A stretch of DNA of 62,731 nt from Candidatus Kaiserbacteria bacterium (GCA_028820405.1 JAPPJI010000001.1:1-62731); one strand, 5' to 3'. Positions 2,240 to 49,094 are shown, counted from the first letter of the stretch. Program-made: numbers and translations. The notes: generated by a model not told the origin, from the letters alone.

Positions 2240-2953
2240 TTATGACCACTTTCGATACAGTGTATACAAAATCGCACAGAGTTCGACGGCGATGATGGTG
2301 AGAACAGCAGCAATCCAGACGAGGATGGTGTTGATTTCCCGACCTGACCCTGTCGAAGCAGGGATTTGTTGCGTAGGCGGACATGACTCATCCACCTCAT
2401 TCTTTTGTGTAAGTGGCGGCAGTGTTGCCGATTGCTCCGGTGCACGAAAATGAGGTATCGGGTTGGTTGCAAGGGCTCCCGGTGTCGCGGGTGCTGCAAC
2501 GAACAGTCCGTCCATGTTGTGCAGCGATGCACCGGTGTTGTCAGACCGGCTGTCTGATTCATAGGTCGTCACGTCTCCATGAATGTCTCCGCTCATTGCA
2601 CGGATAGTGCCGTATTGATCGAGAGAGAATGATGAAAGGAACAGGGGTCCGAAATATTCCGGATAGTCGGCGAGGAAACGGTCTTTGTCTTGCACGATGA
2701 CTGATGCCTTTCGGGGAGGAAGAAACCCGGTTCCTGTTGACGATATTGAATGGGAAATGCCGTTCACGACGATTTGTATTGAGTCGGCAGAAATATCACC
2801 ACCTTCATTGTGTGCGATTTCAATCCATTCGTATCCCGTATCGTCTGCGGGCGGGTTGTACATAACTTCTGTTATGACAAACGAAGCAGATGCTATATGC
2901 GGCAAGAACGTGGTGATAAGGAGCGGTGTGAGACGATACCAGGTTGTTAGCAT
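2240..2953 (-). CDS. secreted lamin-tail-domain (LTD) protein with C-terminal membrane anchor
   Basis: N-terminal signal-like segment. LTD-like core FVITEVMYNPPADDTGYEWIEIAHNEGGD...NTGASLH...APATPGA. C-terminal hydrophobic helix ILVWIAAVLTIIAVELCAILYTLY. Its ATG directly abuts the TAG stop of the upstream gene (2954). Confidence 0.65.
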   Translation of the reverse strand: MLTTWYRLTPLLITTFLPHIASASFVITEVMYNPPADDTGYEWIEIAHNEGGDISADSIQIVVNGISHSISSTGTGFLPPRKASVIVQDKDRFLADYPEYFGPLFLSSFSLDQYGTIRAMSGDIHGDVTTYESDSRSDNTGASLHNMDGLFVAAPATPGALATNPIPHFRAPEQSATLPPLTQKNEVDESCPPTQQIPASTGSGREINTILVWIAAVLTIIAVELCAILYTLYRKWS

Positions 2954-5305
2954 CTACTGACGAACAGTAATTTTCGGCAACTTCAGAATGTCGCCGGTGT
3001 TTCCGGCTGTGTCGGTAACAGAGATAGTGCAGTCAGTGTAGGTGCCGTTGTCGAGTCGATACAGAACGCCGTGTCCGCCGTTCCGCACAATGAACGGAAG
3101 GAGTCCTTCACCGCAGGATCCTCCGTACGTCACCCGCAGCCAGTCACCCATCTGTATGCCGGCAACGCGAACAGGGATGATGACCGGTGCTTCTCCTGAG
3201 AAAGTGATCTCCGTGTTAGTGATACCATTCATGATCGTTGGCGGTGTTGTGTTTCGGACGATGACAATGTCATCTCTCGGATCATTTTCTTGCCCTCCTT
3301 CGTCACGGACACGAAGTGCAAGTGCCACCCGGTTATCACGAGTCATACCGTCTGACTGTCGGGAAAATCGTAGGGTATAGTCTGCACGAACAGAGCCGTT
3401 CGGTCTGTTTTGTATGACAGGATCGCTGACTCGTAGTGCACTGTTCTGTGTGGACGGCGTCAGGGTGAGACCGTATTGCGAGACAACCGTGTCATCGGTG
3501 TACTGTGTCACGTCGTCAGAAATAATGAAAGTTGCCCGGGCAGTGTCTGTTGTTATAAAGAAGAGGTTTTTCCCGGACGGTACCGTTCGCCCGTTAATAT
3601 GGGTGACGGCAATAACGGGTCGTGTACCGGGCAGTCCGGAAGCCGTTGCTAGTGTAGGATCTTCAGCAACCTGTTGGTGCGTAACGTGCTGTGTCCCTGG
3701 TGTTGGAGGACCGGGGAATAGGTCATCCTCAAGGATATGCAGTGTCATGCCGTCTTTCTTTGCTCCGTCACTGCTGCTGTACGTTACCGTGTCGAGAATC
3801 TGCCCTGTCTCTGTCACCTGCAGTGAAAGCGTGTCTCCGGAATCAAGGAGTGACATTGGTGAACGGAATAGCGGACCGCTGTAATCCGGGAAGTCAGATG
3901 AAAATGCCTCCGGCTTCTTTGCGATGATGGCTGATGATTGAGATGCGACCAATGTTGATCCCTCTCGGTGCGTGATTGTTCGAGAGCGGTCTCCGTCAAT
4001 AAGGGTGAGGAAGGTGAGGTCAAGCGGTGCATCGCCGTCATTGGTTACCTCAATCCACTCTGTTGTGATACCTGCAGAGGTTGAGTAGGAGATTTCGCTA
4101 ATATGTGCCGCGAGAGGGCCGGTTTCAATAACTGCAACGTTACCTCCTTCACTCGGTGACAGTACGTATGTCGTATTTCCTGCCAGGTCAGAGACGGTGA
4201 CACAAAGGGGTTGTATTTGTTCGGTTTCGGAAAGATCAATGCGGGCTGAAGAGAAGACAGGGGGTATGGAACGCGTGTGCTCCGTTGACGATAGTGCCTG
4301 GTATCCTTCAGCATCACACGTGCCATCGTCAAGCACCTTATACCGCACCGTTTGGACAAGGTGGTCTTCTTCAATGGAGATTTCAATACTTGTTTCCTGC
4401 CGTGAGACGGAAAGAATCGGCGGTGTTGTGTCGATAATAACCGTCTTGCCGTGGTGTACTATCTCCCCTTCCGCAACGGAATCGCTTTCTGATTCAACGG
4501 AAAAAGTGGGAGTTCCTGTTTCGTCATCTTCTTGAACAATGTAGGTGAATACCTGTTGCACGTCATCACTCTCTGGTGATTCGATGAAATTTCGTTGCAA
4601 TCGTTGGTCACCAATGTAGAGGTCAGCGGTGAGCTGCGGGATACGTTCAGTGTGGAAAATTCGTAGTGATATCCCGTCTCCCGCGTCAAGGAACACACCG
4701 CTCGGGGTGTCGTTGCCACCGGTCACCGCTGTTGTGACCGAAGTGACCTGTGGCTGCACCCGATATGACTCAAGCGGGTTTCTCGCAACCTCTCCCGGCG
4801 TTGCAGGTGCAACGACTAATCCATACTCAGTAACGTGGAGTGAAACACCGGTGTTGTTCGCTCGAGGGTCAGAGGTGTAAGACGTTTGATAGATAACCGT
4901 ATTCCCAACAGAGATGGTTATTCGTGGTGTGCCGATATCCGGAAGGTCCATCGTCGCCTGAAAGAGCGGGCCGGTATATTCTTGATACGTATTGCGAAAA
5001 TCATCCGGGTCGGCGGCGATGATTGCGACACCACCGGGGCGAAGTGTTGTCGACGTTGTCTGGTGCGGCATAATCGTACTCGTTTTTTCATCTCCGCCGG
5101 AAGAGACCGTGACAGAGAGTGCCGTCAGGTCAAGTGACTGATTGCTGTTGTTCACCACCTCAACCCATTCACCGCCGTCTCGCGGTGCGTAGAGAACTTC
5201 TGACAACTCAACACTGCTTCCCTGTGCGTAGGTTGGCAAGACGGAGAAGAGAAGACCGACAACAAGTGCCGGTACGAAGGAAAAGATCAAACATATTTTT
5301 TGCAT
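2954..5305 (-). CDS. large secreted multi-domain surface protein with two LTD-like modules
   Basis: 783 aa with an N-terminal signal peptide (MQKICLIFSFVPALVVGLLFSVLPTYAQG). Two LTD-like modules: VELSEVLYAPRDGGEWVEVVNNSNQSLDL...NNTGVSLH...APATPGE and AHISEISYSTSAGITTEWIEVTNDGDAPLDL. The remainder is beta-rich, Ig-like sequence. Confidence 0.65.
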   Translation of the reverse strand: MQKICLIFSFVPALVVGLLFSVLPTYAQGSSVELSEVLYAPRDGGEWVEVVNNSNQSLDLTALSVTVSSGGDEKTSTIMPHQTTSTTLRPGGVAIIAADPDDFRNTYQEYTGPLFQATMDLPDIGTPRITISVGNTVIYQTSYTSDPRANNTGVSLHVTEYGLVVAPATPGEVARNPLESYRVQPQVTSVTTAVTGGNDTPSGVFLDAGDGISLRIFHTERIPQLTADLYIGDQRLQRNFIESPESDDVQQVFTYIVQEDDETGTPTFSVESESDSVAEGEIVHHGKTVIIDTTPPILSVSRQETSIEISIEEDHLVQTVRYKVLDDGTCDAEGYQALSSTEHTRSIPPVFSSARIDLSETEQIQPLCVTVSDLAGNTTYVLSPSEGGNVAVIETGPLAAHISEISYSTSAGITTEWIEVTNDGDAPLDLTFLTLIDGDRSRTITHREGSTLVASQSSAIIAKKPEAFSSDFPDYSGPLFRSPMSLLDSGDTLSLQVTETGQILDTVTYSSSDGAKKDGMTLHILEDDLFPGPPTPGTQHVTHQQVAEDPTLATASGLPGTRPVIAVTHINGRTVPSGKNLFFITTDTARATFIISDDVTQYTDDTVVSQYGLTLTPSTQNSALRVSDPVIQNRPNGSVRADYTLRFSRQSDGMTRDNRVALALRVRDEGGQENDPRDDIVIVRNTTPPTIMNGITNTEITFSGEAPVIIPVRVAGIQMGDWLRVTYGGSCGEGLLPFIVRNGGHGVLYRLDNGTYTDCTISVTDTAGNTGDILKLPKITVRQ

Positions 5306-5341: not shown

Positions 5342-5497
5342 ATGATGTTTGTGGAATACGGCATACTATGTGCAATGATGAAGTCGGTTCTCTATGCCAT
5401 CTTGTTCTTTGTCGTCATCGTTGCAATAGCGAGCATGTTTGTCATCAACACAGAGTACCGAAACGTGGACGGTGAACGCATTGCGGACGAATCCTAA
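5342..5497 (+). CDS. possible small membrane protein (51 aa; alternative start 5375, 40 aa)
   Basis: Not in the track (below its size cut-off). Translation: MMFVEYGILCAMMKSVLYAILFFVVIVAIASMFVINTEYRNVDGERIADES, with one clear hydrophobic helix. It fills an otherwise empty 188-nt gap. Its stop overlaps the pheT stop by 4 nt (convergent). Confidence 0.3.
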   Translation: MMFVEYGILCAMMKSVLYAILFFVVIVAIASMFVINTEYRNVDGERIADES

Positions 5498-7797
5498 CGA
5501 ACAATAAAACCGCGATCCTCAAGTGCACGGGTCAGGTGTTCCATCGATGCGGTCACCTGCTTGTCATCCAGTGTTTCTGTGTCTGACTGGAAGACGAGTC
5601 GAAACGCATACGACGTTTTTCCGTCTTTTGTAAATTCATCAAAGAGTGACACTTGCCGGAGATATTCGCCGGCATACTCTCGTATGCACTCTTCTGCCGC
5701 GGCAGTATCAGTGTTGTCCGGGACAAAGACGGCGAGGTCGCGAAGCACGAACGGGTATTTTGACGGTGTCTTATATCGGATTGTATCTGAAGCGGTAAAA
5801 GGGGTATCGGTACCCGATAACGGGATGTCTGCAAGCGGAACCTCCCAAACGGATCCGTCAAATCCGCCCGGAATCGGAACCACGTCTCGTACCTCCTGCT
5901 CAACCTGTTTCATGTCTACTGCTTTTCGTCCGAGTGTCGGACAGACACCGAGTGCAATGTGCATAGACATGCCGTCTTCTGAAAATACCGTCCCGACCTC
6001 CATGACACGGACAGTGTCTAATCCGAGGAGGTCGCCGTAGTAAGCGGCTTGTTCAAGGGCTTGTTCAGTGCCGGGTCGCAGCGCTGTCCGCAGACATCCC
6101 TTGTCCTTTGCAACCGGGCGTACAACGCAGAGCGGACTTTTTTTACAAAACGATGAAGTCATTATTTCTGAAAACCCAAGTGTTTGAAGTTTCTGTACTA
6201 CCGCAACGTGTTGAGCATATGTCGGACTAACAGAACCTGGTGGCTGTTGTTCCGGCTCTCGGTCAGAAACCGTGTCATACCCCATGATGCGGCTAATCTC
6301 CTCTATGAGGTCACGTTCATCGCGAAGGTCAGGACGAGTAACGGGGACGGAGACGATGAACCGTTTTTCATCATCAAACAGGCGGCCGACACGAACGGAT
6401 CGGGAGAGGTCAAGCGGCTTTTCAACGACACTATTTGCACCGCCTGACCCTTCCGCTTCAACCGTTGTCTTATGGTCAGTGATAATAACACAGTGACTGA
6501 TCCCTTCCGCTACCGAGCCGTGGACAATGGGAAACCCTGCTTCTTGTACGGATTCAGTCCGAACGGATGCATCCGGGTCATTTGCTTTGGTAAAAATAAT
6601 GTCGCCGGGTTCCGGCTGTTCAACAGGTGCTGCGAAAAGACATTGGTTGATAGACACCCTCGGTATTGATTTTCCGGCCTGTGCTGCCGCCCAGCAGACG
6701 AGTGACGAGCAGTCAAACTGATCGGGGGCGTCTCTCGTGACTGAGGAACCGTAAACATACGGCTTCCCTATCTGTTCACGTATCTTTTTCAAAAACACTT
6801 CCTTGGGGTTTTCATATTGATACGAAAAGTGCAATCGATCAAACACACCCGCGATGTCCTCTTGGGTATATGAAGTCCCCAATATGCTGTTTACCTCACG
6901 GACCGACACGCCGGTGACTCGCTGCTTGCCGACAGGGATTCGCTGACTATCGGCGGAGTCGGTGACGGTGCCGTACTGACTGAAAAAGGCTATCGCATGT
7001 TGTGCGGACTCATCGATAATTTCCGGCGGGAGGTTTTGGGAGAACCGCTGTGATGCATCAGTTGTTCTTCCGATCCGTCTGGTTGTTCGTCGTATGCTCA
7101 GACCGTCGAATACTGCCATTTCTAAATAGATGTCAGTTGTTGTTTCATCTACCTTTGTCGCTTCGCTGCCGATAACGCCGGCAAGTGCGATCACGGTATC
7201 GTTTGCTGCATCGGTGATCACAATGTCTTCAGGTGAAAGCGTAACCGCTTCTCCGTTGAGCGGGGTAAATGGCTCTTGGTCGTGAGCCTGACGAACGGCA
7301 AATGACCCGGACACTTTTTTCGCGTCAAATGCGTGCACAGGGTGACCGATGTCGAAGAGAAAATAGTTGGCAAGGTCTGTGATAGGGTTGATACCTCTCT
7401 GACCAATGCAGCGTAAACGTTCGGCTATTTGGGACGGCGTCTCTTTCAGTGAGAGGTTTTTGACGGTGAGCGTTGCATACCGGTCGCACCGCTCTGTCCG
7501 GATACAGTTTTCTGATGGGTGCGTAAACTGAATTGGTACCGCATCTCTTTTTCGGGAGAGCTGTTGTGAAAGTATCGCACCAAGCTCGTATGCGATGCCT
7601 TGATGTGCAAGGCAGTCAACAGAACGATTCGGCAGGATGTCCAGTTCGTACACCGCTGTTCCGTCTTCCGCCGTCGATACCGCATCAACTTCAAATGCAT
7701 GCCGGTTTAAAAGGTCGGCAATCGTTTGCGGTTCAGGTAACGGTGTGTCGAAGTATGACTGTAGCCATGCATGGCTGAATACTCCCTTCATAGACAA
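5494..7797 (-). CDS. pheT: phenylalanine--tRNA ligase beta subunit, lacking the N-terminal OB (B2) domain and carrying an inserted NlpC/P60-like domain
   Basis: N-terminus HAWLQSYFDTPLP...LLNRHAFEVDAV. B3/B4 region ILPNRSVDCLAHQGIAYELG and GHPVHAFD. B5 region VSVREVNSILGTSYTQEDIAGVFDRLHF ... VSVPVTRPDLRDERDLIEEISRIMGYD. C-terminal FDX-ACB-like KYPFVLRDLAVFV...SYAFRLVFQS. Confidence 0.9.
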   Translation of the reverse strand: MSMKGVFSHAWLQSYFDTPLPEPQTIADLLNRHAFEVDAVSTAEDGTAVYELDILPNRSVDCLAHQGIAYELGAILSQQLSRKRDAVPIQFTHPSENCIRTERCDRYATLTVKNLSLKETPSQIAERLRCIGQRGINPITDLANYFLFDIGHPVHAFDAKKVSGSFAVRQAHDQEPFTPLNGEAVTLSPEDIVITDAANDTVIALAGVIGSEATKVDETTTDIYLEMAVFDGLSIRRTTRRIGRTTDASQRFSQNLPPEIIDESAQHAIAFFSQYGTVTDSADSQRIPVGKQRVTGVSVREVNSILGTSYTQEDIAGVFDRLHFSYQYENPKEVFLKKIREQIGKPYVYGSSVTRDAPDQFDCSSLVCWAAAQAGKSIPRVSINQCLFAAPVEQPEPGDIIFTKANDPDASVRTESVQEAGFPIVHGSVAEGISHCVIITDHKTTVEAEGSGGANSVVEKPLDLSRSVRVGRLFDDEKRFIVSVPVTRPDLRDERDLIEEISRIMGYDTVSDREPEQQPPGSVSPTYAQHVAVVQKLQTLGFSEIMTSSFCKKSPLCVVRPVAKDKGCLRTALRPGTEQALEQAAYYGDLLGLDTVRVMEVGTVFSEDGMSMHIALGVCPTLGRKAVDMKQVEQEVRDVVPIPGGFDGSVWEVPLADIPLSGTDTPFTASDTIRYKTPSKYPFVLRDLAVFVPDNTDTAAAEECIREYAGEYLRQVSLFDEFTKDGKTSYAFRLVFQSDTETLDDKQVTASMEHLTRALEDRGFIVR

Positions 7798-8498
7798 AAC
7801 TGATTAACAACCCGAAGGTCGCCGCTGTACAGGAGGCGTATATCATCAAGACCGTATCGAAGCATTGCAATCCTATCAACGCCGACACCGAATGCAAACC
7901 CTTGGTATCGACGGGCATCAACACCGGCACGGCTGAGTACGTGGCGGTGCACCATGCCACACCCAAGGATCTCCAGCCAGTCGGTATCTTCCGGTCGTTT
8001 GATGTCTACCTCCAGACTCGGTTCGGTAAAGGGGAAGAAGCTCGGTCGATACCGAATGTCAATGGCATTGCCGAAAAGCTGTTGCAGCATGAAGGAGAGT
8101 GTCTGCTGCATGTCAGCAAGCGTCGTGTTTTCGGTGACACAAAAACCTTCCAGTTGGTGAAACTGCACTTCGTGTGTTCTGTCTGTTGCTTCGTTGCGGA
8201 ACACTTTTCCGGGAACGATAACCCGATACGGAGGATCATGCCGCTGCATGTACCGCACCTGCATCGGAGAAGTGTGGGTTCGAAGGAGCTCTCCCTCGTG
8301 CCCGCGAAGCCAGAAGGTATCCCACATTTCTCGTGATGGGTGGTGTTCCGGAATGTTCAGGGCGTCAAAGTTGTACTCCTCCGTTTCCCGCTCCGGACCC
8401 GTTTCAACAGCATAGCCGAGGCTGCGGAATAGGGTCACGAAATCACTTGTCACCAGGGTAATCGGATGCACACCTCCTTTCCGCACAGCAGGTTTCAT
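7788..8498 (-). CDS. pheS: phenylalanine--tRNA ligase alpha subunit (short form, catalytic core only)
   Basis: Motifs HPITLV, FDALNIPEHHPSREMWDTFW, LRTHTSPMQVR, GKVFRNE, FHQLEG and GFAFGVGVDRIAMLRYG. Start placed at ATG 8498 (MKPAVRKGG) because a minus-strand extended -10 lies 7 nt upstream. Track start 8519 is the alternative. The 3' end overlaps the pheT start by 10 nt. Confidence 0.88.
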   Translation of the reverse strand: MKPAVRKGGVHPITLVTSDFVTLFRSLGYAVETGPERETEEYNFDALNIPEHHPSREMWDTFWLRGHEGELLRTHTSPMQVRYMQRHDPPYRVIVPGKVFRNEATDRTHEVQFHQLEGFCVTENTTLADMQQTLSFMLQQLFGNAIDIRYRPSFFPFTEPSLEVDIKRPEDTDWLEILGCGMVHRHVLSRAGVDARRYQGFAFGVGVDRIAMLRYGLDDIRLLYSGDLRVVNQFCL

Positions 8499-8501
8499 AT
8501 G

Positions 8502-8510
8502 TGCCATACT
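8502..8510 (+). promoter_or_regulatory. extended -10-like TGcCATACT, 7 nt upstream of ATG 8518
   Basis: Read directly on the plus strand. It overlaps the minus-strand -10 that serves pheS. Confidence 0.4.
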
Positions 8511-8514
8511 ACCA
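8506..8514 (-). promoter_or_regulatory. extended -10 TGgTAGTAT, 7 nt upstream of pheS ATG 8498
   Basis: The reverse complement of 8506..8514 is TGGTAGTAT. Confidence 0.45.
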
Positions 8515-8517
8515 CAC

Positions 8518-9003
8518 ATGCATATCCTGCTCTGCGAAAATATACGGAGTACGCTTAATGTCGGCAGTATATTTCGAACTGCAGATGCGGTTGGGTTTGA
8601 AAAGGTGCTCCTCGTCGGCTACACCCCCTGCCCCATTGATCGCATGGGTCGGGAAAACGAAAAGATGCATAAAACCGCACTCGGTGCAGAAAAAACAGTG
8701 CCCTGGCACCACTACGAAACAGTTGGCGGTGCATTGCAGGATCATCAATATGCAACGCCGGTTGTCATTGAGCAGACAGATCGTGCAACTTGCTACACCG
8801 ATTATGCGTTGAGTAATCCCACTATTTTCATCTTCGGCAATGAAGTGTCCGGAGTATCACAAGATGTGCAAAAAGAGGTTCCCCTGCATCTCTCTGTACC
8901 GATGCGAGGGAAAAAAGAATCGTTAAACGTCGCTGTCTGTGCCGCAGTTATCGCGTACCACTATGCGATGGTTTCGTGCAACAAAGAGAGCCGAGGAACG
9001 TGA
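8518..9003 (+). CDS. SpoU/TrmH-family RNA 2'-O-methyltransferase
   Basis: Motifs ENIRSTLNVGSIFRTADAVG, IFIFGNEVSGVS and IPMRGKKESLNVAVCAAVIAY, which are the SPOUT knot motifs. Confidence 0.8.
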   Translation: MHILLCENIRSTLNVGSIFRTADAVGFEKVLLVGYTPCPIDRMGRENEKMHKTALGAEKTVPWHHYETVGGALQDHQYATPVVIEQTDRATCYTDYALSNPTIFIFGNEVSGVSQDVQKEVPLHLSVPMRGKKESLNVAVCAAVIAYHYAMVSCNKESRGT

Positions 9004-9026: not shown

Positions 9027-9500
9027 CTACCGTTCTCGCCAGCCAGCCTGTCTGCGGATTGGACACAGGATCGGATCGGTGTTTTTGTTGGGGAAAAGGG
9101 TGAGAGGGAGTCGTTCAATCTCCTTGCGGTATTCTTCCATCTCTGCGAGTAGTTCGTTCAGGGTGAGCTGATAGATACCCACCCACCCTTTGTATTCTTC
9201 ATAGGTGATGAACGTCTTTATGAGTTCGGATATTCGGTTTGCCTCTCGGTTTAGGTCATCAATAGTACGCTTCTGCAGGCGAGACCGGCAGTTGTATTCG
9301 GGCAGGGGGCGGATAGGTCGTCGCCCGAAGAACGGCTCTGCCATTATTTCCATGCTTGACAGAAGCTTTTTCAGCTTGAACCGATAGCAGTATACGAGAC
9401 CGGGCTGCTGACTCTTGTTAAAAAATAAGATAAGGTCAACGTATCTCGACAGACCTGTTTCAATGCCTTCAGATTGTTGTTCAGCTGCGGTAAAGGGCAT
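9027..9500 (-). CDS. hypothetical protein (157 aa)
   Basis: Start trimmed to ATG 9500 (MPFTAAEQQ), which follows a strong SD GGAGGTGG (reverse complement of 9503..9510). No family recognised. Confidence 0.55.
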   Translation of the reverse strand: MPFTAAEQQSEGIETGLSRYVDLILFFNKSQQPGLVYCYRFKLKKLLSSMEIMAEPFFGRRPIRPLPEYNCRSRLQKRTIDDLNREANRISELIKTFITYEEYKGWVGIYQLTLNELLAEMEEYRKEIERLPLTLFPNKNTDPILCPIRRQAGWRER

Positions 9501-9587
9501 GACCACCTCCTTTCTGTTGACAGCACAATACGTTAGCAAAGGTTACTTAAATCCCCTCTTTACCTATCATATAGTACATCGCCGCGT

Positions 9588-21550: not shown

Positions 21551-23041
21551 ATGCCAGCACGACCACCAATCATTGCCGTTGTTGGACATATTGACCACGG
21601 CAAGTCAACATTGCAGCAGGCGATTCGCAATGCGAATACCGAGCTCAAGGAGGCAGGTGATATCACCCAGCACATTGGGGCCTATGAGCTCCATGCATCG
21701 TACGAAGGGTCTGAACGCCGGGCGACTATCATTGACACCCCGGGACACGAGGCTTTTTTGCATGTCAGAGAGCACGGTCTTGAGATCGCAGATATTGCCC
21801 TGCTCGTTGTCTCATCGGAAGAGGGATGGAAAGAGCAAACACAGGAAACGTATGAGGTGATACAAAAATTGAAAACCCCTTTCATCATCGTTTTTACAAA
21901 AATAGACACTGAAAAAGCGAATATTGAAACAGCAAAACAGAGTGTACTCAAACAAGGCATTCTTCTTGAGCAGCTTGGCGGATCCATTCCGTGGATTGGC
22001 GTCTCCTCAACAACAGGCGAAGGTGTCTCAGACCTCATTGACCTCATTTTCCTCACCACCGACGTGTATGAGATTGTGGAAGACCGAACTGACGGATCTG
22101 TCGGTACCCTCGTTGAAGCCGACATTGATCCAAAAGTTGGTATTACCGGAACCGTCATTGTTCTGCAAGGAAGTCTCACCTCCGATCACTATGTCCGCAT
22201 CGGGTCCAGCACCGCTCCGCTCCGCATCATGACAAACGACCGGGGGAAAAAGGTAACTGATGTTGTTCCGTCAACACCGGTACGTATTGCCGGCTTTGAC
22301 ACGGTCCCCGCTATCGGTGCACCGGTCTTCCGGTATGACAGCAGGAAAGATGCAACCGAAGCGGCAAAGAGTGCAGTATCAAAAAAGCAACAACGAACCG
22401 TTGACACCGGTGAACGCGGCAGAACCATATCTCTCGTCATCCGTTCTGATACTGCGTCGGGTCTCACCTCCATTGAACGGGCAGTTGCAGCCGTTGCAGA
22501 AGAAGGCATCACCTTCTCTATTGTTAAACGTGCAGTCGGTCAGGTGACTGAAGAAGATGTTCGCATTGCAAAGTCACAGGATGGCGGTCAGGTGCTCGGA
22601 TTCCACACGACCGCTGATCAACGGGCAAAACGGCTTGCTGAACGAACAGACACACCGATCCATCTCTTCCCGACAATCTATGAGGTAACGGCATGGGCAA
22701 AAGAGCTGTCACAGGAAAAACGAGGAACATACGAACTACAGAATGTAACCGGCGAGGCATCTATCATCAGAATATTTGAAGAGCAGCCGGCACAGAACAC
22801 CTACATCGTTGGTGCTCAAGTGACTGAAGGGTCTTTCAAAAAGGGGCAAAGCATTGCGATAAAGCGGGGAGAATCAATTGCCGGTCAATTCGTGGTTGAA
22901 TCCCTTGAACAGCGAAACAAAGAGCAGGATAGCGTGTCGGGAGAAAAGCAGCAATTTGCAATGCGTATCAAAGGAGAGGGATCCGTTGCACTGCAAGACA
23001 CTGCTGTTGCACTTCCCGACCTCACAGACAAGTCATCATGA
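21551..23041 (+). CDS. infB: translation initiation factor IF-2 (short form, no N-terminal extension)
   Basis: Motifs IIAVVGHIDHGKSTL, DTPGHEAF and TKID, followed by the beta-barrel and C-terminal domains. Confidence 0.92.
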   Translation: MPARPPIIAVVGHIDHGKSTLQQAIRNANTELKEAGDITQHIGAYELHASYEGSERRATIIDTPGHEAFLHVREHGLEIADIALLVVSSEEGWKEQTQETYEVIQKLKTPFIIVFTKIDTEKANIETAKQSVLKQGILLEQLGGSIPWIGVSSTTGEGVSDLIDLIFLTTDVYEIVEDRTDGSVGTLVEADIDPKVGITGTVIVLQGSLTSDHYVRIGSSTAPLRIMTNDRGKKVTDVVPSTPVRIAGFDTVPAIGAPVFRYDSRKDATEAAKSAVSKKQQRTVDTGERGRTISLVIRSDTASGLTSIERAVAAVAEEGITFSIVKRAVGQVTEEDVRIAKSQDGGQVLGFHTTADQRAKRLAERTDTPIHLFPTIYEVTAWAKELSQEKRGTYELQNVTGEASIIRIFEEQPAQNTYIVGAQVTEGSFKKGQSIAIKRGESIAGQFVVESLEQRNKEQDSVSGEKQQFAMRIKGEGSVALQDTAVALPDLTDKSS

Positions 23042-42359: not shown

Positions 42360-45300
42360 TTAAAGTGCGGCAAACCTGCTGATATCAGCACTGCCGAGGA
42401 TAATTTCCCCTGCGGTTGACGACTGTCTGACAAGGTTGAAATATTTACCGCCACCACTAACCGTAGCTCCCTCTGCCTTCTGAAGAATAGAAATAATTCC
42501 CTGAGGGTCCTGTCGTTCTTCGACAATGCTCTTGGCAAGTTCCGGAACAGCTTCATTCATAAGGGTAGCGTTTCCGGCGTGATCAAGCATTGCGATTTTA
42601 AGCACGGATTCAACAGCAGCAACAAGACTCACCGGAACTTCACCGTCACCTTTCAGGTCAAACAAGTCTTTCTTCTCCTCGGAAACAGATGTTATGAATC
42701 GCTCCACCATAGATTCATCGGGACGGCTAAACGAAATACCGTTTGCAGCCTTACCTTCACCGAGGTCAATAACCAGTGTTTCTATTGACCCATCACTGCC
42801 CCGGACCACATCCGCGGACGCCGGCAGTGAAGCGAGGCGATCGGACCATCCGGACTCACTGCTAAACCACGGCTTGAAGTCGGCAAGTGAAACATTCTCA
42901 AGTGACGTTCCTCCTTTCTGGAAACTCACCGTTACGTCACCAAGATCATTACCGGCAACTTCCTGTAAGATTGCAGCAAATTCTTCTGAATCGGCAGAAA
43001 ATCCTTCCTCAGGTTCTGAGAGATCCGCCGCTGGTTCCTGATCGGGAGCCGGGGACGACACTGTCTCATCGATACCTGCCATGGATTGATCTGACATCTC
43101 TTCATCCATTTTTTGATTCGGCATGACCTCACTCTGATTCTGTTCTGCAGCTGCAGTATCGGGCTGAGAAGGTGTTGCCTCGCTCTCTGCCGGCGATACG
43201 CCCTCTGTGCCGGAAAGGAATTCCTGAACTGCCTGTTTGTTTATCGTATCCCCGATTTCAATATAGTTAGGAGCATCACCGAGATTTCTCACGTCAGCAC
43301 GCATGCCAAACTCCTTGAGCCGTGCTATCTTTTCCTTCGCGCTGAGCTGTGACCACTTCTGCACAAACGAAGATTGCTGTTCAGGTTCGTATTCAAGAAT
43401 GGTGAACAATCTGTCTCCTTTTTGAACCGTATGCAAGTCAGCAGACAGCTCTGCTTCGTGACCTTCTGCCTCAGGTTTTCCACTGTCAGAAATCTCCACC
43501 TTATTCTCCGGAGCGGATGTTGTGTCAGGCGTCTCGACGCCGGACAGTGCACTGTAGAGGTCTTGCGCCTGATCCCGAAGAACGAAACCGGCCGCACCTC
43601 CGATGACGGCACCGAACAAAAAGGCCTTCTGTCGTTTTGAAACACCTTTCTTCCTGAATGCTACTTCCCGCCTATGATCAACTGATTCAACAAGGTCAAG
43701 GAACTTCTGCACCCGATCAGCATTGTTGAGGTCGTTTTTCGCAGCTTCTACCTTGAGGTTAATTTCTTGCTGCAACAAATGTTGATATATAGACTCAAGA
43801 CGAACGTATGCCGGTTTCTGCAAGAATCTCTCTACGTCACCACCCTGCTGTCTTACAAACGCAAGGTAATCGTTACGAAGTGTCATGACCTCGGCAAACG
43901 TACCTCCTCGGACACTCTTCTGGTTTTCAAATGTTTCCAAGAAATTTTCTAATTTCTGCTCCTCTGCCTTTTCTTCTCTCGTTGCAACAAAACTCTCAGC
44001 TGTTATACCGCCGCCGACAGCACCAAGTCCTGCAGTCCATGCAATGAAGGCAGGACTCCCAACGGCACCGGTGCCAAAACCGAGGAGAGCGGTAATGACA
44101 TTACGAACCGATGCCTGTCGTGCCATGAACTTGAGAATCCCTGCAGTTTTTCCTTTCCTGGCGTCGATGCGGTGACGCACACCAAGCACGTTCTTGTCAT
44201 ATAGATTCATCTCAGAAAACGATTGGTATGCCTGTTTCAGTTTCTCTGTAAAGGATGCCTGCTCCAGTTCACTCTGGGCATCCGAAAGATCTTTATCAAG
44301 CATGTCAACGATTTCTTCTTCAACATGATCTATCCGCTCTTTTTTGTCCTTGAGCTGTTCAATCTCTTCTTCAGTCTTACTCCTATTCGTCTCATACTCC
44401 TGCATCATGTCGCTCACGTGTAACGCTTTTCTTTCAGCATCCTCAAGTATGTGCCGTGACTTCTCAACAGCTTCTTCCTCACCGCCGCTCTCAGCACCTT
44501 CTTCTTTTATTCGATCAATGAGATCCTTTGTAGCCACTTGCCGCTGTTCCCAATCAGCCTCTCGCTCGTGGAGAACGGCAGTCTTCTCCTTCACGGCAAT
44601 AGCCTCAGGCTCAAGCAGTGTCTGTGCAGTTTGCTCAACCGTCATTTGAGAGTTAAGATCAACACCTTCCTGTCCGGCTTTTTCTTGGATATCAGCAATT
44701 TCTTTTTCAATGTCAGCGATTTCTTTCTGAGACATCTCTCTGGATTCAGCGAGAGCCTTTTCGGCACGTGCCAGCCGATCTGCTGACTCCTTGTCACTGT
44801 CTTGACCTTCTTTTTCTGTGTTCTGAAGGACTTCCCGAGCAACCCTCGCCTCCTCTTCTTGATCAGCTAGCACCTGACCCCACTTCGCGTCACATCCTAA
44901 AAGGGCAGTTGTCTTTTCGTTGTTCGCAACAATGAGCGGGTGCAGTACCGTGAACACGCGCCGCTGGTTCGGACTGACGTTAACTTGTTCAGCTTCTCTT
45001 TGAACACGGGCAAGCTCCTGTCGAGCCTTTTCGATATCACGCTGCGCCTCCCGTTGAATGTTCGCAAGTTTTTGCTCAGCCTGTTCAAGATCTTGCTGTC
45101 GTTTCTTTTCCTGGTTCAGCACTTCTTGCTTTTTCTCAAAATCCTCCCTTGCAGTCGCAACCGCTGTCAGAGCACTTTCATGCTGAGCCTGGAGATCGCC
45201 GTGTGCTCGGGCAAGGTATGAGAGCTCCTGTTCTGCCCGTGACAGAGATTTCTCTACCTGCTTCAGCTGCTCCTTTCTGGCAACTTCTGCCGTACTCTGA

Positions 45301-46133
45301 GAACGTAGCTTTTCTTGCTTCGCCTGTATCTGACGCAGCATACCCCCCTTCTCTTCCTCCATCTCCCTTTTTCTGTCAGCTTCTATCCCAGCATGCTTCT
45401 CCTGTAGTTCTGTAAGCGGATCTTGTTCGATATCCGGCTCATCCTCGGTGTGGACAGGTGCGGGTCCTTCCACGTCACTCTCAGGAACCTGATCTTCCGA
45501 TTCTGCTACCGGTTCAGGTTCTGCTTCCTCTTGAGGAGATTCATCTTCTTCATTGACACCCTCTGCAACCTTCTCTTCTCGAGGCGTTCTTTCTTTCCCC
45601 TCCTCACCTTCTTTCATTGCAGACGTCTCGTGATGAGATGAAGGTTGTTCTTCCTGCCCCGCAGCGTCACCGCTTCCCCCCTTCACCTCACCAGCAGTCT
45701 CTGCAACAACGTCACCGAGATCACTGGTTTCATCATCCGGATCAGCACCCTGTTCACGCACATACTGCTTCAACCTTGCGATCTCAAACAGACTGAACGG
45801 TGGAACAGATCGTCGCGGATCGTCTGCCTGAGATACTTTGAAAAGACTGACAAAAGTATTGTGTAGCATTTCGAGACTGTGTCGATACACGTTCATCTTC
45901 TCTTCCGCTTCTTCCTCACTGAGATCGCTGTCATACAAACCCCTTGCGAACATCTCAATAGATTTACGCAGTTGTTCAAAACCGCCACCCGCTCCACCTT
46001 TCTGTGCATACTGAAAGACCGTGTTCACCGTGCCGTCTTGCAACATCCCTCGCAACACCTCATCTTTTCCGACCGATTCCCGAGCAACCGACCGTTCTTT
46101 TTGTTCACGCTGTACCACCGTATCCTCTGCCAT
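42360..46133 (-). CDS. 1257-aa Glu-rich coiled-coil membrane protein (hypothetical)
   Basis: About 675 aa of N-terminal acidic heptad-like sequence. Gly-rich hydrophobic segments VRNVITALLGFGTGAVGSPAFIAWTAGLGAVGGGI (about aa 676-715) and AFLFGAVIGGAAGFVL (about aa 837-852). About 400 aa of C-terminal region. No family recognised. Confidence 0.7.
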   Translation of the reverse strand: MAEDTVVQREQKERSVARESVGKDEVLRGMLQDGTVNTVFQYAQKGGAGGGFEQLRKSIEMFARGLYDSDLSEEEAEEKMNVYRHSLEMLHNTFVSLFKVSQADDPRRSVPPFSLFEIARLKQYVREQGADPDDETSDLGDVVAETAGEVKGGSGDAAGQEEQPSSHHETSAMKEGEEGKERTPREEKVAEGVNEEDESPQEEAEPEPVAESEDQVPESDVEGPAPVHTEDEPDIEQDPLTELQEKHAGIEADRKREMEEEKGGMLRQIQAKQEKLRSQSTAEVARKEQLKQVEKSLSRAEQELSYLARAHGDLQAQHESALTAVATAREDFEKKQEVLNQEKKRQQDLEQAEQKLANIQREAQRDIEKARQELARVQREAEQVNVSPNQRRVFTVLHPLIVANNEKTTALLGCDAKWGQVLADQEEEARVAREVLQNTEKEGQDSDKESADRLARAEKALAESREMSQKEIADIEKEIADIQEKAGQEGVDLNSQMTVEQTAQTLLEPEAIAVKEKTAVLHEREADWEQRQVATKDLIDRIKEEGAESGGEEEAVEKSRHILEDAERKALHVSDMMQEYETNRSKTEEEIEQLKDKKERIDHVEEEIVDMLDKDLSDAQSELEQASFTEKLKQAYQSFSEMNLYDKNVLGVRHRIDARKGKTAGILKFMARQASVRNVITALLGFGTGAVGSPAFIAWTAGLGAVGGGITAESFVATREEKAEEQKLENFLETFENQKSVRGGTFAEVMTLRNDYLAFVRQQGGDVERFLQKPAYVRLESIYQHLLQQEINLKVEAAKNDLNNADRVQKFLDLVESVDHRREVAFRKKGVSKRQKAFLFGAVIGGAAGFVLRDQAQDLYSALSGVETPDTTSAPENKVEISDSGKPEAEGHEAELSADLHTVQKGDRLFTILEYEPEQQSSFVQKWSQLSAKEKIARLKEFGMRADVRNLGDAPNYIEIGDTINKQAVQEFLSGTEGVSPAESEATPSQPDTAAAEQNQSEVMPNQKMDEEMSDQSMAGIDETVSSPAPDQEPAADLSEPEEGFSADSEEFAAILQEVAGNDLGDVTVSFQKGGTSLENVSLADFKPWFSSESGWSDRLASLPASADVVRGSDGSIETLVIDLGEGKAANGISFSRPDESMVERFITSVSEEKKDLFDLKGDGEVPVSLVAAVESVLKIAMLDHAGNATLMNEAVPELAKSIVEERQDPQGIISILQKAEGATVSGGGKYFNLVRQSSTAGEIILGSADISRFAAL

Positions 46134-46254: not shown

Positions 46255-46689
46255 ATGCCAACCGCCGAAGGAAGTACGTTTAGCGAAGAACTGGAATCTA
46301 TTAAAAACGAGGTCAAGCAGTCACTTGATCAGGAACGAACCCGGAAACAAAAAAGAGACCAACCTGCAGGTCGCGAACACACAAGTGCAGAGCGGGAGAT
46401 GCTGGCAGTTCGCGACGCGATAGCAAAACTGACGGGTCACGAACCAAAAACGGTCGTTCCGCCACCCGTTAATCAGGAGGGCGGCACAGATACCGATCAC
46501 TTCACTGACATTGACGAATCGGTAAAGAAAGAAGTGACGGACCTCGTGGAAGAAACACTCAGCGGCGGCAGTATTGCTGCCGTTGCAGCGAAAGCAATGA
46601 AAAAGAATGACCCGCTTATCCTCGACCTATACCACGATGCTATGGCGAGAGAGACGCACCGGCGGTTTTCTGATCAAAACGCACCATGA
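46255..46689 (+). CDS. acidic hypothetical protein (144 aa)
   Basis: Start at ATG 46255 (MPTAEGSTFSEE); track start 46222 is a GTG. Its stop overlaps the next gene start (ATGA), implying coupling with the ATPase. Confidence 0.55.
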   Translation: MPTAEGSTFSEELESIKNEVKQSLDQERTRKQKRDQPAGREHTSAEREMLAVRDAIAKLTGHEPKTVVPPPVNQEGGTDTDHFTDIDESVKKEVTDLVEETLSGGSIAAVAAKAMKKNDPLILDLYHDAMARETHRRFSDQNAP

Positions 46690-49094
46690 TCCTCGACCCG
46701 CTTCTCGATAAATTGACAGACCTCTGGAACACCCTCCTTGCATCTGAGCGGGTCACGCAGGCATATGCACTCTTTGGTGCCGCAATCGGTATCTGGGTTA
46801 TGTCTATGGCCGCCCTCTGGTTCACGAAACGGCGATCCCGAAAAAAGGCCCTCAAAGAAGCTGTTGCATATACCCTACTGCAGGTAACACAGACACCGCA
46901 TGCGGGTAACGACGAACAACAAAATGACCTTGTGCAAATACGGCTGTTTGAAGACCTCCTGCACTCTATCGTCCCTGAAAAAAAATCCATCACACTTGAG
47001 ATGGCGGTGCCGAGCAAAGGAACTGACATCATGTTTTTTATTGCCGTACCAAAAGAGTACGAGGATACCGTGAAAACGCAGGTGCGGCGGGTCTTTGAAC
47101 GAGCACAGGTGCAAGAGGTCTCTGACTACACCATATTCCGAGAAGGCGGTCACAGCGAGCTGCTTGACCTTACTCTCAGCCAATATGACGGATTGCCGAT
47201 CTATACGTATAAAAAGAGTGAGACCGACACCTTCGCCCCTATTATCGGAACCTTTGCAAGTGCACGGGAAGACGGCGTCGGCATTGCCATGCAGCTCACC
47301 CTCCGGCGATCAGACAAACAGAAAGCACGGGAGATACGGGGCGTTCTGAAAGACCTCAGGCGAGGAAAACGCCTGAAAGAGATCAAGCCGACCGGTGTCG
47401 GCGGAAAACTGCAGCAAGCGGCTGCGGTTGCCAACACCGGAGATGAAAAAGAACCGGAAGCGTCCCCCGAGGCAGCACTTGTCGAAGAGAAGGTATCAGA
47501 ACAACTCTATAACGTTACCGTACGACTCGGCATCTGCACTGACAGTGAGGAAAAAACGAGACTCCTCTCTGAAACCCTGCAGGGGCGGTTTGAATCGTTT
47601 GGCTCCGCAGAGCATAATGCTTTCTCATTTACAAAACGAAAGGACAAGACAACTGCCCTCAACTTTACCTTCCGCCTCCATGACGTAAAAAGAAGTTCGA
47701 CGCTCAACGCACAGGAAATCACCAGCATCTTCCACCTGCCGACGAGACCGCTTGAGGTGGGGAACCTCCAATGGATGAAGACGAAACGGGTTGCAGCACC
47801 GACAGAGACAGCAACCGAAGGACTCTTCCTCGGAGATAACCTTTTCCACGATCAAAAAAAGGAAATATACATGCCGGAACAAGACCGTCTGCGACACATC
47901 TACATCATCGGTCAAACCGGAACGGGAAAGACAGCGAGTATCAAATCAATGGCATACCAGGATATTCAGAGCGGGAAAGGACTCTGTATCATTGATCCGC
48001 ACGGTGACCTCGTCGACGATATGCTCACCACTATCCCGGAGAGCCGACTCGATGACGTCATTGTCTTTGATCCGAGTAACGTGAAGAGTCCTCTCGGACT
48101 TAATATGCTTGAGTATGACAAAAGCCGTCCGGAAGAGAAGACGTTTATCGTCAACGAAATCCTTTCCATCTTCAACCGTCTGTTTGGACAGAACAACCCT
48201 GAGTCAACCGGTCCGGCATTTCAGCAGTACATGCGAAACACACTTTTGCTCCTGATGGACGGCAAGCAGGATGAGCCTGCAACTCTCATGGAGGTTCCCC
48301 GTGTCTTCACCGATGATTCGTTTCGCGAGTCACTTTTAAAACAGTGCACGCTTGAGCCGGTACGGCAGTTCTGGGAAGATGAGGCGAGTAAAGTGGAGGG
48401 TGATTGGAGCCTCAGCAATATTGCTCCGTACATCACATCAAAGTTTGGCAACTTCACGACCAATGACTATGTCCGTCCGATTATTGAACAACCGCACTCA
48501 TCATTCTCATTCCGAGAGGTCATGGATTCCGGGAAGATGTTGTTTGTAAAGTTGCCGAAGGGAAAAATCGGAGAGATCAATGCACAACTTCTCGGCATGC
48601 TCGTAACAGGAAAAATTGCCCTTGCCGCATTCTCTCGAGACGATGTCCCCGAACATGAGCGAAAAGACTTCTTCTTCTACATCGACGAATTTCAAAACTT
48701 TACCACTGACAGTATCAGTCAGATTCTCTCCGAGGCAAGAAAATACCACCTCAGCCTCACTATTGCACACCAGTACATGGAACAGCTCACTGATGATATT
48801 CGCGGTGCCGTTCTTGGTAATGTGGGGACAACAATTGCATTTCGAACGGGTATTCAGGACGCGGAAATATTAGAAAAGAAATTTTCACCGGAGTTTTCAG
48901 CACAGGAGTTAAGTGATATCGAAAACCTCAACTGTGTCATCAGCATGCTCTCCAATCAAAAAGTGCTTTCACCATTTACTATGCACATTCGTTTTGCTCC
49001 GCAAGGAAACCCAAACCTGCGAGACCATGTTATCAGCTATACATCACTTAAACACCAAAAAGAGGTGCAAAAAAAAATGGGAGCACATAATTAG
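46686..49094 (+). CDS. membrane-anchored VirD4/TraG/TrwB-like (type IV coupling protein-like) P-loop ATPase
   Basis: N-terminal TM helix (AYALFGAAIGIWVMSMAALWF). Walker A IIGQTGTGKTAS followed by CIIDPHGDL. Walker B FFFYIDEFQNF. ARKYHLSLTIAHQYMEQL resembles the TraG/TraD C-terminal motif. Confidence 0.6.
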   Translation: MILDPLLDKLTDLWNTLLASERVTQAYALFGAAIGIWVMSMAALWFTKRRSRKKALKEAVAYTLLQVTQTPHAGNDEQQNDLVQIRLFEDLLHSIVPEKKSITLEMAVPSKGTDIMFFIAVPKEYEDTVKTQVRRVFERAQVQEVSDYTIFREGGHSELLDLTLSQYDGLPIYTYKKSETDTFAPIIGTFASAREDGVGIAMQLTLRRSDKQKAREIRGVLKDLRRGKRLKEIKPTGVGGKLQQAAAVANTGDEKEPEASPEAALVEEKVSEQLYNVTVRLGICTDSEEKTRLLSETLQGRFESFGSAEHNAFSFTKRKDKTTALNFTFRLHDVKRSSTLNAQEITSIFHLPTRPLEVGNLQWMKTKRVAAPTETATEGLFLGDNLFHDQKKEIYMPEQDRLRHIYIIGQTGTGKTASIKSMAYQDIQSGKGLCIIDPHGDLVDDMLTTIPESRLDDVIVFDPSNVKSPLGLNMLEYDKSRPEEKTFIVNEILSIFNRLFGQNNPESTGPAFQQYMRNTLLLLMDGKQDEPATLMEVPRVFTDDSFRESLLKQCTLEPVRQFWEDEASKVEGDWSLSNIAPYITSKFGNFTTNDYVRPIIEQPHSSFSFREVMDSGKMLFVKLPKGKIGEINAQLLGMLVTGKIALAAFSRDDVPEHERKDFFFYIDEFQNFTTDSISQILSEARKYHLSLTIAHQYMEQLTDDIRGAVLGNVGTTIAFRTGIQDAEILEKKFSPEFSAQELSDIENLNCVISMLSNQKVLSPFTMHIRFAPQGNPNLRDHVISYTSLKHQKEVQKKMGAHN

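Follow-up and report, generated by a model that had tools for sequence, protein, structure and literature searches.

An NlpC/P60 domain nested in the B5 domain of PheT

The 62,731-nt stretch of DNA considered here (the window; GCA_028820405.1 JAPPJI010000001.1:1-62731), from a Candidatus Kaiserbacteria bacterium, encodes phenylalanyl-tRNA synthetase (PheRS) in a pheS-pheT operon on the minus strand. Its pheT gene, for the beta subunit of this housekeeping enzyme, contains a complete NlpC/P60 (C40) papain-like domain at the turn of the B5 hairpin. The gene (5494-7797, -) is a single uninterrupted open reading frame (ORF) of 767 amino acids (aa) from a TTG; the gene caller's version (P0001) has 765 aa and starts at an ATG at 7791, which a codon check shows to overlap the pheS stop codon as ATGA. 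The inserted domain occupies residues 335-478 (FLKKIREQ...DDEK; 6364-6795, -) and divides B5 in two. The N-terminal half of B5 (residues 291-334; 6796-6927, -) ends with the first hairpin strand, ...DRLHFSYQYE, and the C-terminal half (residues 479-510; 6268-6363, -) holds the second strand, RFIVSVPVTRPD, and the DLIEE acidic helix. Pfam likewise finds B5 in two pieces, the match to the C-terminal half covering residues 475-507.

Profile searches identify the insert as NLPC_P60 (PF00877), with residues 344-405 scoring 36.5 bits in the whole protein against a gathering threshold of 23, and the insert alone scoring 42.3 bits (E=8e-11). Homologues carry a precomputed PF00877 annotation, and the best non-PheT matches of the insert in NCBIfam are RipC, p60/Iap, RipB and RipD. 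At the insertion point, the 115 best homologues of at least 540 aa have either about 145-183 aa or merely 2-7 aa (15 in one case), and close insert-less relatives have an ordinary hairpin turn there (e.g., ...LGFVYKQTSQGEFAISVP...). On the evidence of these insert-less homologues, the true insert is approximately residues 330-478, starting about five residues earlier, near nt 6810. In alignment the insertion falls between residues 440 and 441 of T. thermophilus PheT, in the turn of the B5 beta-hairpin. An earlier note, made from this DNA alone, had described a P60 insert of about 145 aa in B5, and the Pfam match, the translation and the homologue comparison all agree with it.

An AlphaFold 2 (AF2) model of the whole PheT, built on an 83-sequence alignment, has a mean predicted local distance difference test (pLDDT) score of 93.9 and a predicted template modelling (pTM) score of 0.82, and its top Foldseek matches in the PDB are bacterial PheRS beta chains (E~1e-47). 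The B5::P60 segment modelled alone (6268-6927) reaches pLDDT 96.7 and pTM 0.92, which argues that B5 and P60 form one rigid two-domain unit; in these confident models B5 is re-formed around the insert. In a Foldseek search of the PDB the B5::P60 model matches Acd24020 (7cfl) with E=4.9e-09, a TM score of 0.82-0.84 and a root-mean-square deviation (rmsd) of 2.3 A. Its other fold neighbours include LytE, CwlO, RipA/B, SagA, a Trichomonas NlpC and also RipD, the best neighbours having target TM scores of 0.75-0.84 and rmsd of 2.3-3 A. There are 44 PDB chains at E<=1e-3, and all those recognised by name are of the NlpC/P60 type. Going by the model, the best PDB neighbours are P60 domains of gamma-D-Glu-type peptidoglycan endopeptidases. 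Known editing folds (B3/B4, CP1, INS/YbaK, AlaX, DTD) were not found for the insert, which returned solely NlpC/P60 in the Pfam, NCBIfam, PDB sequence and PDB fold searches.

Within the domain there is a family-specific sub-insert at residues ~406-430 (6508-6582, -; pLDDT 88-93), between the GDxxF strand and the His strand. It is because of this sub-insert that Pfam aligns just profile positions 1-61 of 105. Its length varies from 17 to 47 aa across the family, and it is about 45 aa and highly conserved in a clade of stand-alone proteins described below; it probably shapes the prime side of the cleft. No export signal or wall-binding domain (LysM, SH3b) was found in the embedded form, which is internal to a cytoplasmic subunit, or in the stand-alone forms examined, which begin directly at the B5 strand (e.g., MINKPIYRIGLS) with no hydrophobic leader.

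The host protein has the domain order of a bacterial PheRS beta subunit (B3/B4, B5, B6/B7, FDX-ACB), encoded after pheS. A B1-like N-terminal domain (residues 1-46; 7660-7797, -) is fused straight onto the B3/B4 region, and the B2 OB-fold is absent: residue 47 aligns with T. thermophilus PheT residue 153, and a Pfam search of the window PheT gave no match to tRNA_bind/B2 (PF01588). Loss of B2 has already been reported for many PheRS-beta proteins of the candidate phyla radiation (CPR; PMC5370408). The B3/B4 editing domain follows (residues 104-275; 6973-7488, -; Pfam B3_4, E=1.5e-50). Its editing-site residues are kept, with equivalents of T. thermophilus N250, H261, E334, T354 and A356 present and T249 replaced by Ala. 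After B5 come the catalytic-like B6/B7 module (residues 513-670; 5788-6261, -), which has a weak Pfam match to tRNA_synthFbeta (E=0.046) and aligns with T. thermophilus residues 441-580, and the B8/FDX-ACB anticodon-binding domain (residues 679-762; 5512-5763, -; Pfam FDX-ACB, E=1.1e-18). With B2 missing and B5 interrupted, the window PheT scores below the TIGR00472 equivalog cutoff (333.7 versus 402.65 bits).

The alpha subunit, PheS (7788-8519, -; 243 aa; Pfam tRNA-synt_2d, E=2.9e-91), consists of the catalytic core only. It scores 286.5 bits against TIGR00468 (cutoff 237), the match spanning only positions 64-322 of the 324 in the model, so that the coiled coil at its N-terminus is missing. 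The earlier note's remark that PheT lacks B2 and PheS its coiled coil is thus borne out for both subunits.

Catalytic and pocket residues

The predicted catalytic residues of the insert are Cys363 in the FDCSS motif (6709-6711, -), His435 in ISHCV (6493-6495, -) and, as third member of the triad, Glu447 in TVEAE (6457-6459, -); the earlier note had placed these three in the correct order, and the codons lie where it put them. Conservation was counted over 222 non-identical PheT-embedded modules and 85 stand-alone modules. The nucleophile Cys is kept in 222 of the 222 embedded modules and the His in 221, the exception being P0009 with Arg, and the Cys-His-(His/Glu) triad as a whole is retained in essentially all copies. 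Most homologues have His at the third position (IHA motif): among embedded modules it is His in 186, Glu in 17 (the window's own clade) and another residue in 19, and in the stand-alone modules it is His, giving Cys/His/His in 85 of 85.

The protein with the substituted His, P0009 (808 aa), is the sole such embedded copy. It has extra insertions as well and is the sister of the insert-less P0023, so that it looks like a decaying copy heading for loss.

According to Xu et al. (PMC4600125), four residues form the L-Ala (S2) and gamma-D-Glu (S1) subsites of DL-endopeptidases: the YGWG Tyr, the Ser that follows the nucleophile Cys, and both Arg and Ser in PRNS. The corresponding motifs in the embedded modules are PY..G, DCS and PR.S. 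Tyr347 in GKPYVYG (6757-6759, -; codon checked) is the equivalent of the active-site Tyr that hydrogen-bonds D-Glu (DvLysin Y322), and this position is Tyr in 217 of 222 embedded modules. Ser364, next to Cys363, corresponds to DvLysin S334 (Ser in 215 of 222). Arg380 in IPRVS (6658-6660, -; codon checked) is the counterpart of the Arg in DvLysin PR350NS352, at the S2/S1 subsite, with Arg conserved in 220 of 222 modules and Ser or Thr at +2 in 183.

The sequence comparison shows P60 to be as conserved as the synthetase's own domains, mean pairwise identity among 63 full-length insert-bearing orthologues being 40.5% for P60, 41.5% for B3/B4, 43.2% for B8 and 32.1% for B6/B7. The mean net charge of the P60 module is about -2, which argues that it is not an RNA-binding surface.

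Spread, history and loss

The embedded architecture was sought in one genome per GTDB species with the pattern DAPxxFDCSS, which gave 171 matches, of which 157 were confirmed; at least 157 GTDB species genomes therefore have it. Where record titles are taxon-specific, all denote metagenome-assembled genomes (MAGs) of the Parcubacteria/Paceibacteria type (Zambryski-, Wolfe-, Yonath-, Terry-, Nomura-, Lloyd- and Campbellbacteria, Paceibacter). The many records named 'uncultured Candidatus Saccharibacteria' are bulk-binned MAGs, and these names were not trusted as taxonomy; three matching records are titled 'chromosome: 1'. An exhaustive HMMER search with the insert against 1.84 billion cluster representatives gave 78 matches at E<=1e-10, and among the 140 further 50%-identity cluster representatives newly returned in the best 150, about 94 are PheT-embedded. 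The insert has a G+C fraction of 0.512, the remainder of pheT one of 0.514.

These comparisons show the insertion to be old and widespread in Paceibacteria/Parcubacteria. The equal GC and the recurrence in at least 157 species rule out both an assembly chimera and a recent transfer. The earlier note had named a failed profile search and an assembly chimera among the grounds against its proposal, and neither was borne out.

The domain has also been lost. In a crude neighbour-joining tree of 576 core columns, from which the insert was excluded, insert-less proteins fall within insert-bearing clades, and Fitch parsimony gives 12 state changes in total. Close sister pairs with and without the insert occur (P0009/P0023 and P0012/P0029), and deletions leave a clean hairpin scar. 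We read the tree as a single gain early on and some ten precise losses thereafter. Compensation by P60 for the lost B2 domain or coiled coil was considered and is ruled out, as insert-less CPR PheTs also lack B2.

Stand-alone B5::P60 proteins and monomeric PheRS

In nine of 80 genome loci the motif lies in a short ORF of about 226-256 aa that consists of the N-terminal half of B5, P60 and the C-terminal half of B5 only. In all nine of the loci with upstream sequence (eight plus L082), this relic directly follows a gene of about 380 aa for a PheS core with FDX-ACB, and in eight of the nine its ATG overlaps the PheRS stop codon as ATGA. The arrangement in L004 (4793-6618) is a mitochondrial-type monomeric PheRS of about 382 aa, a 226-aa B5::NlpC/P60 relic and gyrB; the same is seen in L014, L018, L019, L020, L023, L028, L068 and L082. 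The gene upstream of the relic scores 248.9 bits against pheS_mito (TIGR00469), 261 bits against 'SrmL' and 162.5 bits against bacterial pheS, so that the monomeric PheRS falls just under the curated cutoffs of pheS_mito (258) and SrmL (300). Because gyrB follows the relic, as it does near pheST in relatives, the relic sits at the ancestral locus.

Stand-alone B5::P60 proteins of about 226 aa form at least 74 clusters at 90% identity, under annotations that vary from C40 peptidase, LytE and NlpC/P60 even to 'PheRS beta chain'. Within this family the identity of P60 is 67.5%, against 43-47% for the B5 remnants, in which two of the four acidic positions stay conserved. Because P60 is far more conserved than the B5 remnants, with its triad kept, the peptidase is the part under selection, which has outlasted every other domain of PheT. 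It should not be concluded that the relic is always beside PheRS: in L087 and L089 a B5::P60 gene lies elsewhere, paired with a gene of the Peptidase_C39_2 type.

Monomeric PheS + FDX-ACB enzymes are very common in Parcubacteria. In a more distant subgroup, L083 (4001-5140), L084 (4001-5140) and L085 (4001-5149), the monomeric PheRS gene leads straight to gyrB with no B5::P60 at the locus, and tblastn found no P60 remnants at any of these three sampled loci, to which the search was confined. In L084 there is an 89-aa ORF for a stand-alone tRNA_bind (B2-like OB) domain just upstream (3631-3900), as though B2 had survived separately. No description of a monomeric PheRS in free-living-type bacteria was found in the literature searched.

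A second peptidase gene downstream

The gene next after the P60 module is often one for a Peptidase_C39_2-like protein of about 170-200 aa (Pfam E=1e-12 to 4e-8), which is leaderless and keeps Cys, His and Asp motifs in the sequences examined. All ORFs of 171 loci and the window were translated and searched with hidden Markov models. A C39_2 gene comes immediately after the module's gene, in the same orientation, in 29 of 62 evaluable embedded loci, in 6 of 13 stand-alone loci and in none of 28 insert-less CPR-type pheT loci. In many embedded loci the gap between the P60-bearing pheT and the C39_2 gene is -4 to +10 nt. Examples are found in L019 (6612-7169), L018 (6647-7249), L089 (4593-5159) and L011 (from about 7408). 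The B5::P60 and C39_2 genes of L087 and L089 form a pair that is not beside a PheRS gene, and those of L089 overlap. A PDB sequence search with the C39_2 protein gave no homologue. The family (PF13529) is known among the catalytic domains of phage lysins (10.1101/2021.02.23.432618) and is otherwise poorly characterised (PMC10318531). The co-inheritance of two cytoplasmic papain-like peptidases points to a peptide-processing pathway rather than to tRNA chemistry.

Two further loci are of note. L086 (5001-5615) encodes a diverged 204-aa P60 protein of the FDCSS type (P0167), about 1.5 kb from genes for a Mur ligase and a MurL-type epimerase/ligase, enzymes that act on UDP-MurNAc-L-Ala-Glu. In L090, from an insert-less lineage, a 213-aa ORF (3363-4004) is wedged between pheS and pheT and overlaps both. 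We considered it as a diverged P60 and rejected it, as it has no Pfam match and no P60 motifs; its RGFGRRGLGERRL stretch gives the impression of a GNAT acyl-CoA motif. The same locus has a Peptidase_C93 gene after gyrB.

Proposed function

The explanation that we favour, at a probability of about one half, is that PheRS carries a cytoplasmic amidase of the gamma-D-glutamyl type that acts in a peptide or muropeptide pathway, as the sequence comparisons and the fold model would suggest. Under this proposal the P60 domain would be an active cytoplasmic amidase of the DL-endopeptidase type. Its substrates would probably be stem peptides derived from peptidoglycan, or small peptides like them, cut after a gamma-D-glutamyl-like residue. 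The Peptidase_C39_2-like cysteine peptidase encoded directly downstream would probably be its partner in many lineages. PheRS itself would serve as a carrier and a platform for co-expression, and the module would be an accessory, dispensable for aminoacylation and for B3/B4 editing; its repeated loss would follow from its not being needed for either. In one lineage the B5::P60 relic would then have outlived the rest of PheT.

Peptidoglycan synthesis belongs to the core genome of Parcubacteria, which lack amino-acid biosynthesis (PMC4508563), so that cytoplasmic turnover or salvage of stem peptides is plausible. The window encodes an SLT lytic transglycosylase with a PG_binding_1 domain (49108-50106, -), which argues that the organism remodels peptidoglycan.

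Several points weigh against this proposal. Since there is no signal peptide or wall-binding domain, any substrate derived from peptidoglycan must be cytoplasmic, and no genes for recycling or uptake are tied to the module. The S1/S2 residues are signatures of the P60 family as a whole, so that they argue for the same chemistry and do not fix the substrate, and the prime-side loops, including the conserved sub-insert, are unlike those of characterised enzymes. The association with C39_2 (Fisher p~1e-6) is given without phylogenetic correction, and the window and L001-L003, its own clade, have no adjacent C39_2 gene. Finally, the persistent placement in B5, the strict ATGA coupling to pheS or PheRS and the retention of both halves of B5 by the relic are what one would expect of a module whose substrate is a product of PheRS.

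Alternative explanations

The last of these points leads to the alternative that survives best, although we regard it as doubtful: that P60, which B5 holds beside the alpha catalytic core, hydrolyses an ester or anhydride that PheRS makes, candidates being mischarged or D-aminoacyl-tRNAPhe, N-blocked Phe-tRNA and Phe-AMP. It might then be a second, new proofreading or regulatory site, possibly under redox control through its Cys, by analogy with the amidase of glutathionylspermidine synthetase/amidase (GspSA). In E. coli GspSA, a papain-like CHAP Cys amidase shares one polypeptide with an ATP-dependent ligase and is regulated through its Cys, and a Cys-His hydrolase could in chemical terms cleave aminoacyl esters. 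The site of insertion is suggestive, in that B5 makes contact with the catalytic core of the alpha subunit, across an interface whose conservation extends from bacteria to human (10.1101/067587). The B5 acidic positions (D, D, E, E) are kept in 67 of 67 insert-bearing PheTs, and B5 and P60 are rigidly joined (pTM 0.92). Both halves of B5 persist in the relic, which overlaps the stop codon of a monomeric PheRS in eight of nine loci, and the monomeric enzymes that precede it have no B3/B4.

The remaining evidence lowers this possibility. The 67 insert-bearing and 43 insert-less CPR PheTs show equal conservation at the equivalents of N250, H261, E334, T354 and A356, which are present in 56-66 of the 67 insert-bearing homologues, so that the B3/B4 editing residues are fully kept beside the insert. 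The domain has been lost about ten times from otherwise intact PheTs. All three sampled distant loci for monomeric PheRS lack both B3/B4 and P60, which argues that the two domains are not complementary, at least at the locus. Replacement of B3/B4 editing by P60 was rejected, given that the editing residues are equal with or without the insert and that there are loci with neither domain. In L087 and L089 stand-alone B5::P60 lies apart from PheRS genes, and in the relic B5 has only two of four acidic positions conserved and evolves much faster than P60. The fold and the pocket residues are those of peptidoglycan-peptide amidases, the module is slightly negative (mean net charge about -2), and it has no homology with known editing folds. 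These tests make a new editing site less likely than an amidase. The earlier note had left the role open between a new editing or hydrolase module and a moonlighting domain: a hydrolase or moonlighting domain fits all the findings, whereas a new editing module is disfavoured by the intact B3/B4 residues, the roughly ten losses, the DL-endopeptidase pocket and the peptidase partner.

A related and somewhat less probable scenario is that B5::P60, frequently with C39_2, is a catalytic accessory of PheRS that docks through B5 on the alpha core and acts on a product of the synthetase. It could provide a second proofreading or deacylation site, or an acyl-enzyme step that links Phe-tRNA or Phe-AMP to gamma-D-glutamyl stem peptides. 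Such an accessory would explain why translational coupling to PheRS persisted after all other parts of the beta subunit were lost.

It is improbable that the domain has a non-catalytic role, either in binding a ligand or partner or in stabilising a PheRS that has no B2 or coiled coil. Inactive P60 domains do exist, RipD being one among the fold matches, and compensation is conceivable in that all sampled CPR PheRS lack B2. However, Cys and His are kept in 221-222 of 222 embedded and in 85 of 85 stand-alone modules, which binding alone would not require, and insert-less CPR PheTs also lack B2, so that there is no correlation. The sole copy with His replaced by Arg neighbours a lineage that has lost the domain, as would be the case for a decaying enzyme.

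More improbable still is an acyl- or aminoacyl-transferase, in which a thioester on the P60 Cys, of a gamma-D-glutamyl peptide or of Phe from Phe-tRNA, is passed to an amine and not to water, coupling the output of PheRS to the modification of a peptidoglycan precursor or another acceptor. The NlpC/P60 superfamily includes the acyltransferases LRAT and LnsA (PMC10318531, PMC7387801), a pocket of the stem-peptide type is present on an enzyme that makes Phe-tRNA, and tRNA-dependent peptidoglycan bridge enzymes have been reported in most OD1 genomes (PMC4508563). The domain nevertheless groups by sequence and fold with hydrolytic P60 and not with LRAT-like families, and the pattern of loss that counts against editing applies equally here.

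An artefact, that is an assembly chimera or a frameshifted join of a P60 gene and pheT, can be dismissed, as nothing was found for it and the ORF is single and uninterrupted, its GC is near-identical in the insert and the rest of the gene, the same in-frame architecture recurs across those species genomes from many studies (including the 'chromosome: 1' records) and in the further cluster representatives, and the AF2 model is confident with B5 re-formed around the insert. The probability that remains we assign to something not considered.

Other features of the window and annotation

The gene content of the window is that of an ordinary chromosome, with ribosomal proteins, SecY, EF-Tu, IF-2, ClpB, RelA/SpoT, ParB, MiaA, topoisomerase I and six tRNAs. 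Among the best 120 homologue matches, a sample that does not amount to a whole-genome scan, none of the 641-831 kb contigs contributes a second PheT. Directly downstream of pheT are two neighbouring ORFs of 783 and 237 aa with lamin-tail (LTD) domains (2240-5305, -), the larger of which is hydrophobic at its N-terminus and probably encodes a surface protein. A 170-aa ORF with no Pfam family lies between the SpoU methylase and topoisomerase I genes (9027-9539, -), and a 1257-aa ORF, also with no Pfam family (42360-46133, -), adjoins a TraG/VirD4-like type IV coupling ATPase (46686-49094, +). The IF-2 gene (21551-23041, +) encodes just 496 aa and begins at the GTPase domain; it is thus a further trimmed translation factor.

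Names in the databases are inconsistent, as seen among P0058, P0069, P0263 and P0279. Full-length PheT::P60 proteins are called 'C40 family peptidase' or 'beta subunit-related protein', and relics of 220 aa are called 'phenylalanyl-tRNA synthetase beta chain', which could distort counts of marker genes and completeness. The naming of some members at NCBI as 'C40 family peptidase' or 'beta subunit-related' follows from a score below the equivalog cutoff. Because the insert pushes PheT below that NCBI cutoff, pheT can look absent in completeness and metabolic surveys.

Comparison with known systems

As far as we have found, no aminoacyl-tRNA synthetase is known to bear a papain-like peptidase domain, and the full-text literature searched, which leaves most subscription journals uncovered, gave no account of P60 within any enzyme of this kind; automated annotation already lists PF00877 in PheT::P60 proteins. 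The architecture is shared throughout an entire class of bacteria that are ultra-small and depend on hosts, and the series in which the module is embedded, cleanly excised, alone beside a monomeric PheRS, or absent separates its function from that of PheT. If the module is a cytoplasmic muropeptide or peptide amidase, an implication is that organisms unable to make amino acids have an unrecognised salvage pathway; should its substrates be PheRS products, it would represent a novel form of quality control by a synthetase.

Among nested or appended hydrolases, the closest in arrangement are the editing modules of aminoacyl-tRNA synthetases (B3/B4 of PheRS, CP1 of LeuRS, IleRS and ValRS, INS of ProRS), which are likewise mounted on a synthetase. 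There are free-standing relatives in both cases, CtdA being one of B3/B4 (PMC12449066, PMC12268091), as B5::P60 has free-standing forms. In contrast to the editing modules, the P60 fold is unrelated, B3/B4 is intact beside it, and the pattern of loss is not complementary.

The enzymes that precede the relic have the same architecture of PheS core and FDX-ACB as the mitochondrial-type monomeric PheRS (TIGR00469) and the NCBIfam 'PheS-related mystery ligase SrmL'. They differ in that they are bacterial, being from Parcubacteria, and are located at the ancestral pheST-gyrB locus, in one clade with a relic of PheT after them.

The classical C40 DL-endopeptidases (the secreted LytE, CwlO, Acd24020, RipA/B and SagA, and YkfC) have a fold in common with the insert (TM 0.75-0.84), along with the Cys-His-His/Glu order and the Tyr, Ser, Arg and Ser of the L-Ala/D-Glu subsites. 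Like YkfC, a cytoplasmic recycling enzyme, the insert would act in the cytoplasm. Unlike these enzymes, it has no signal peptide, LysM or SH3b, is nested within a domain of an aminoacyl-tRNA synthetase, has DCSS in place of DCSG and a sub-insert of 17-47 aa before the His strand, and has B5 rather than SH3b as its rigid neighbour domain.

Finally, GspSA offers another instance of a hydrolase mounted on a synthetase. Its amidase, of the same superfamily as P60, however, reverses the product of its own ligase and is fused at the N-terminus, whereas the P60 domain of PheT is nested. We suggest that the nearest functional precedents for the insert are cytoplasmic stem-peptide amidases of the YkfC type, with GspSA as an analogy for the architecture.

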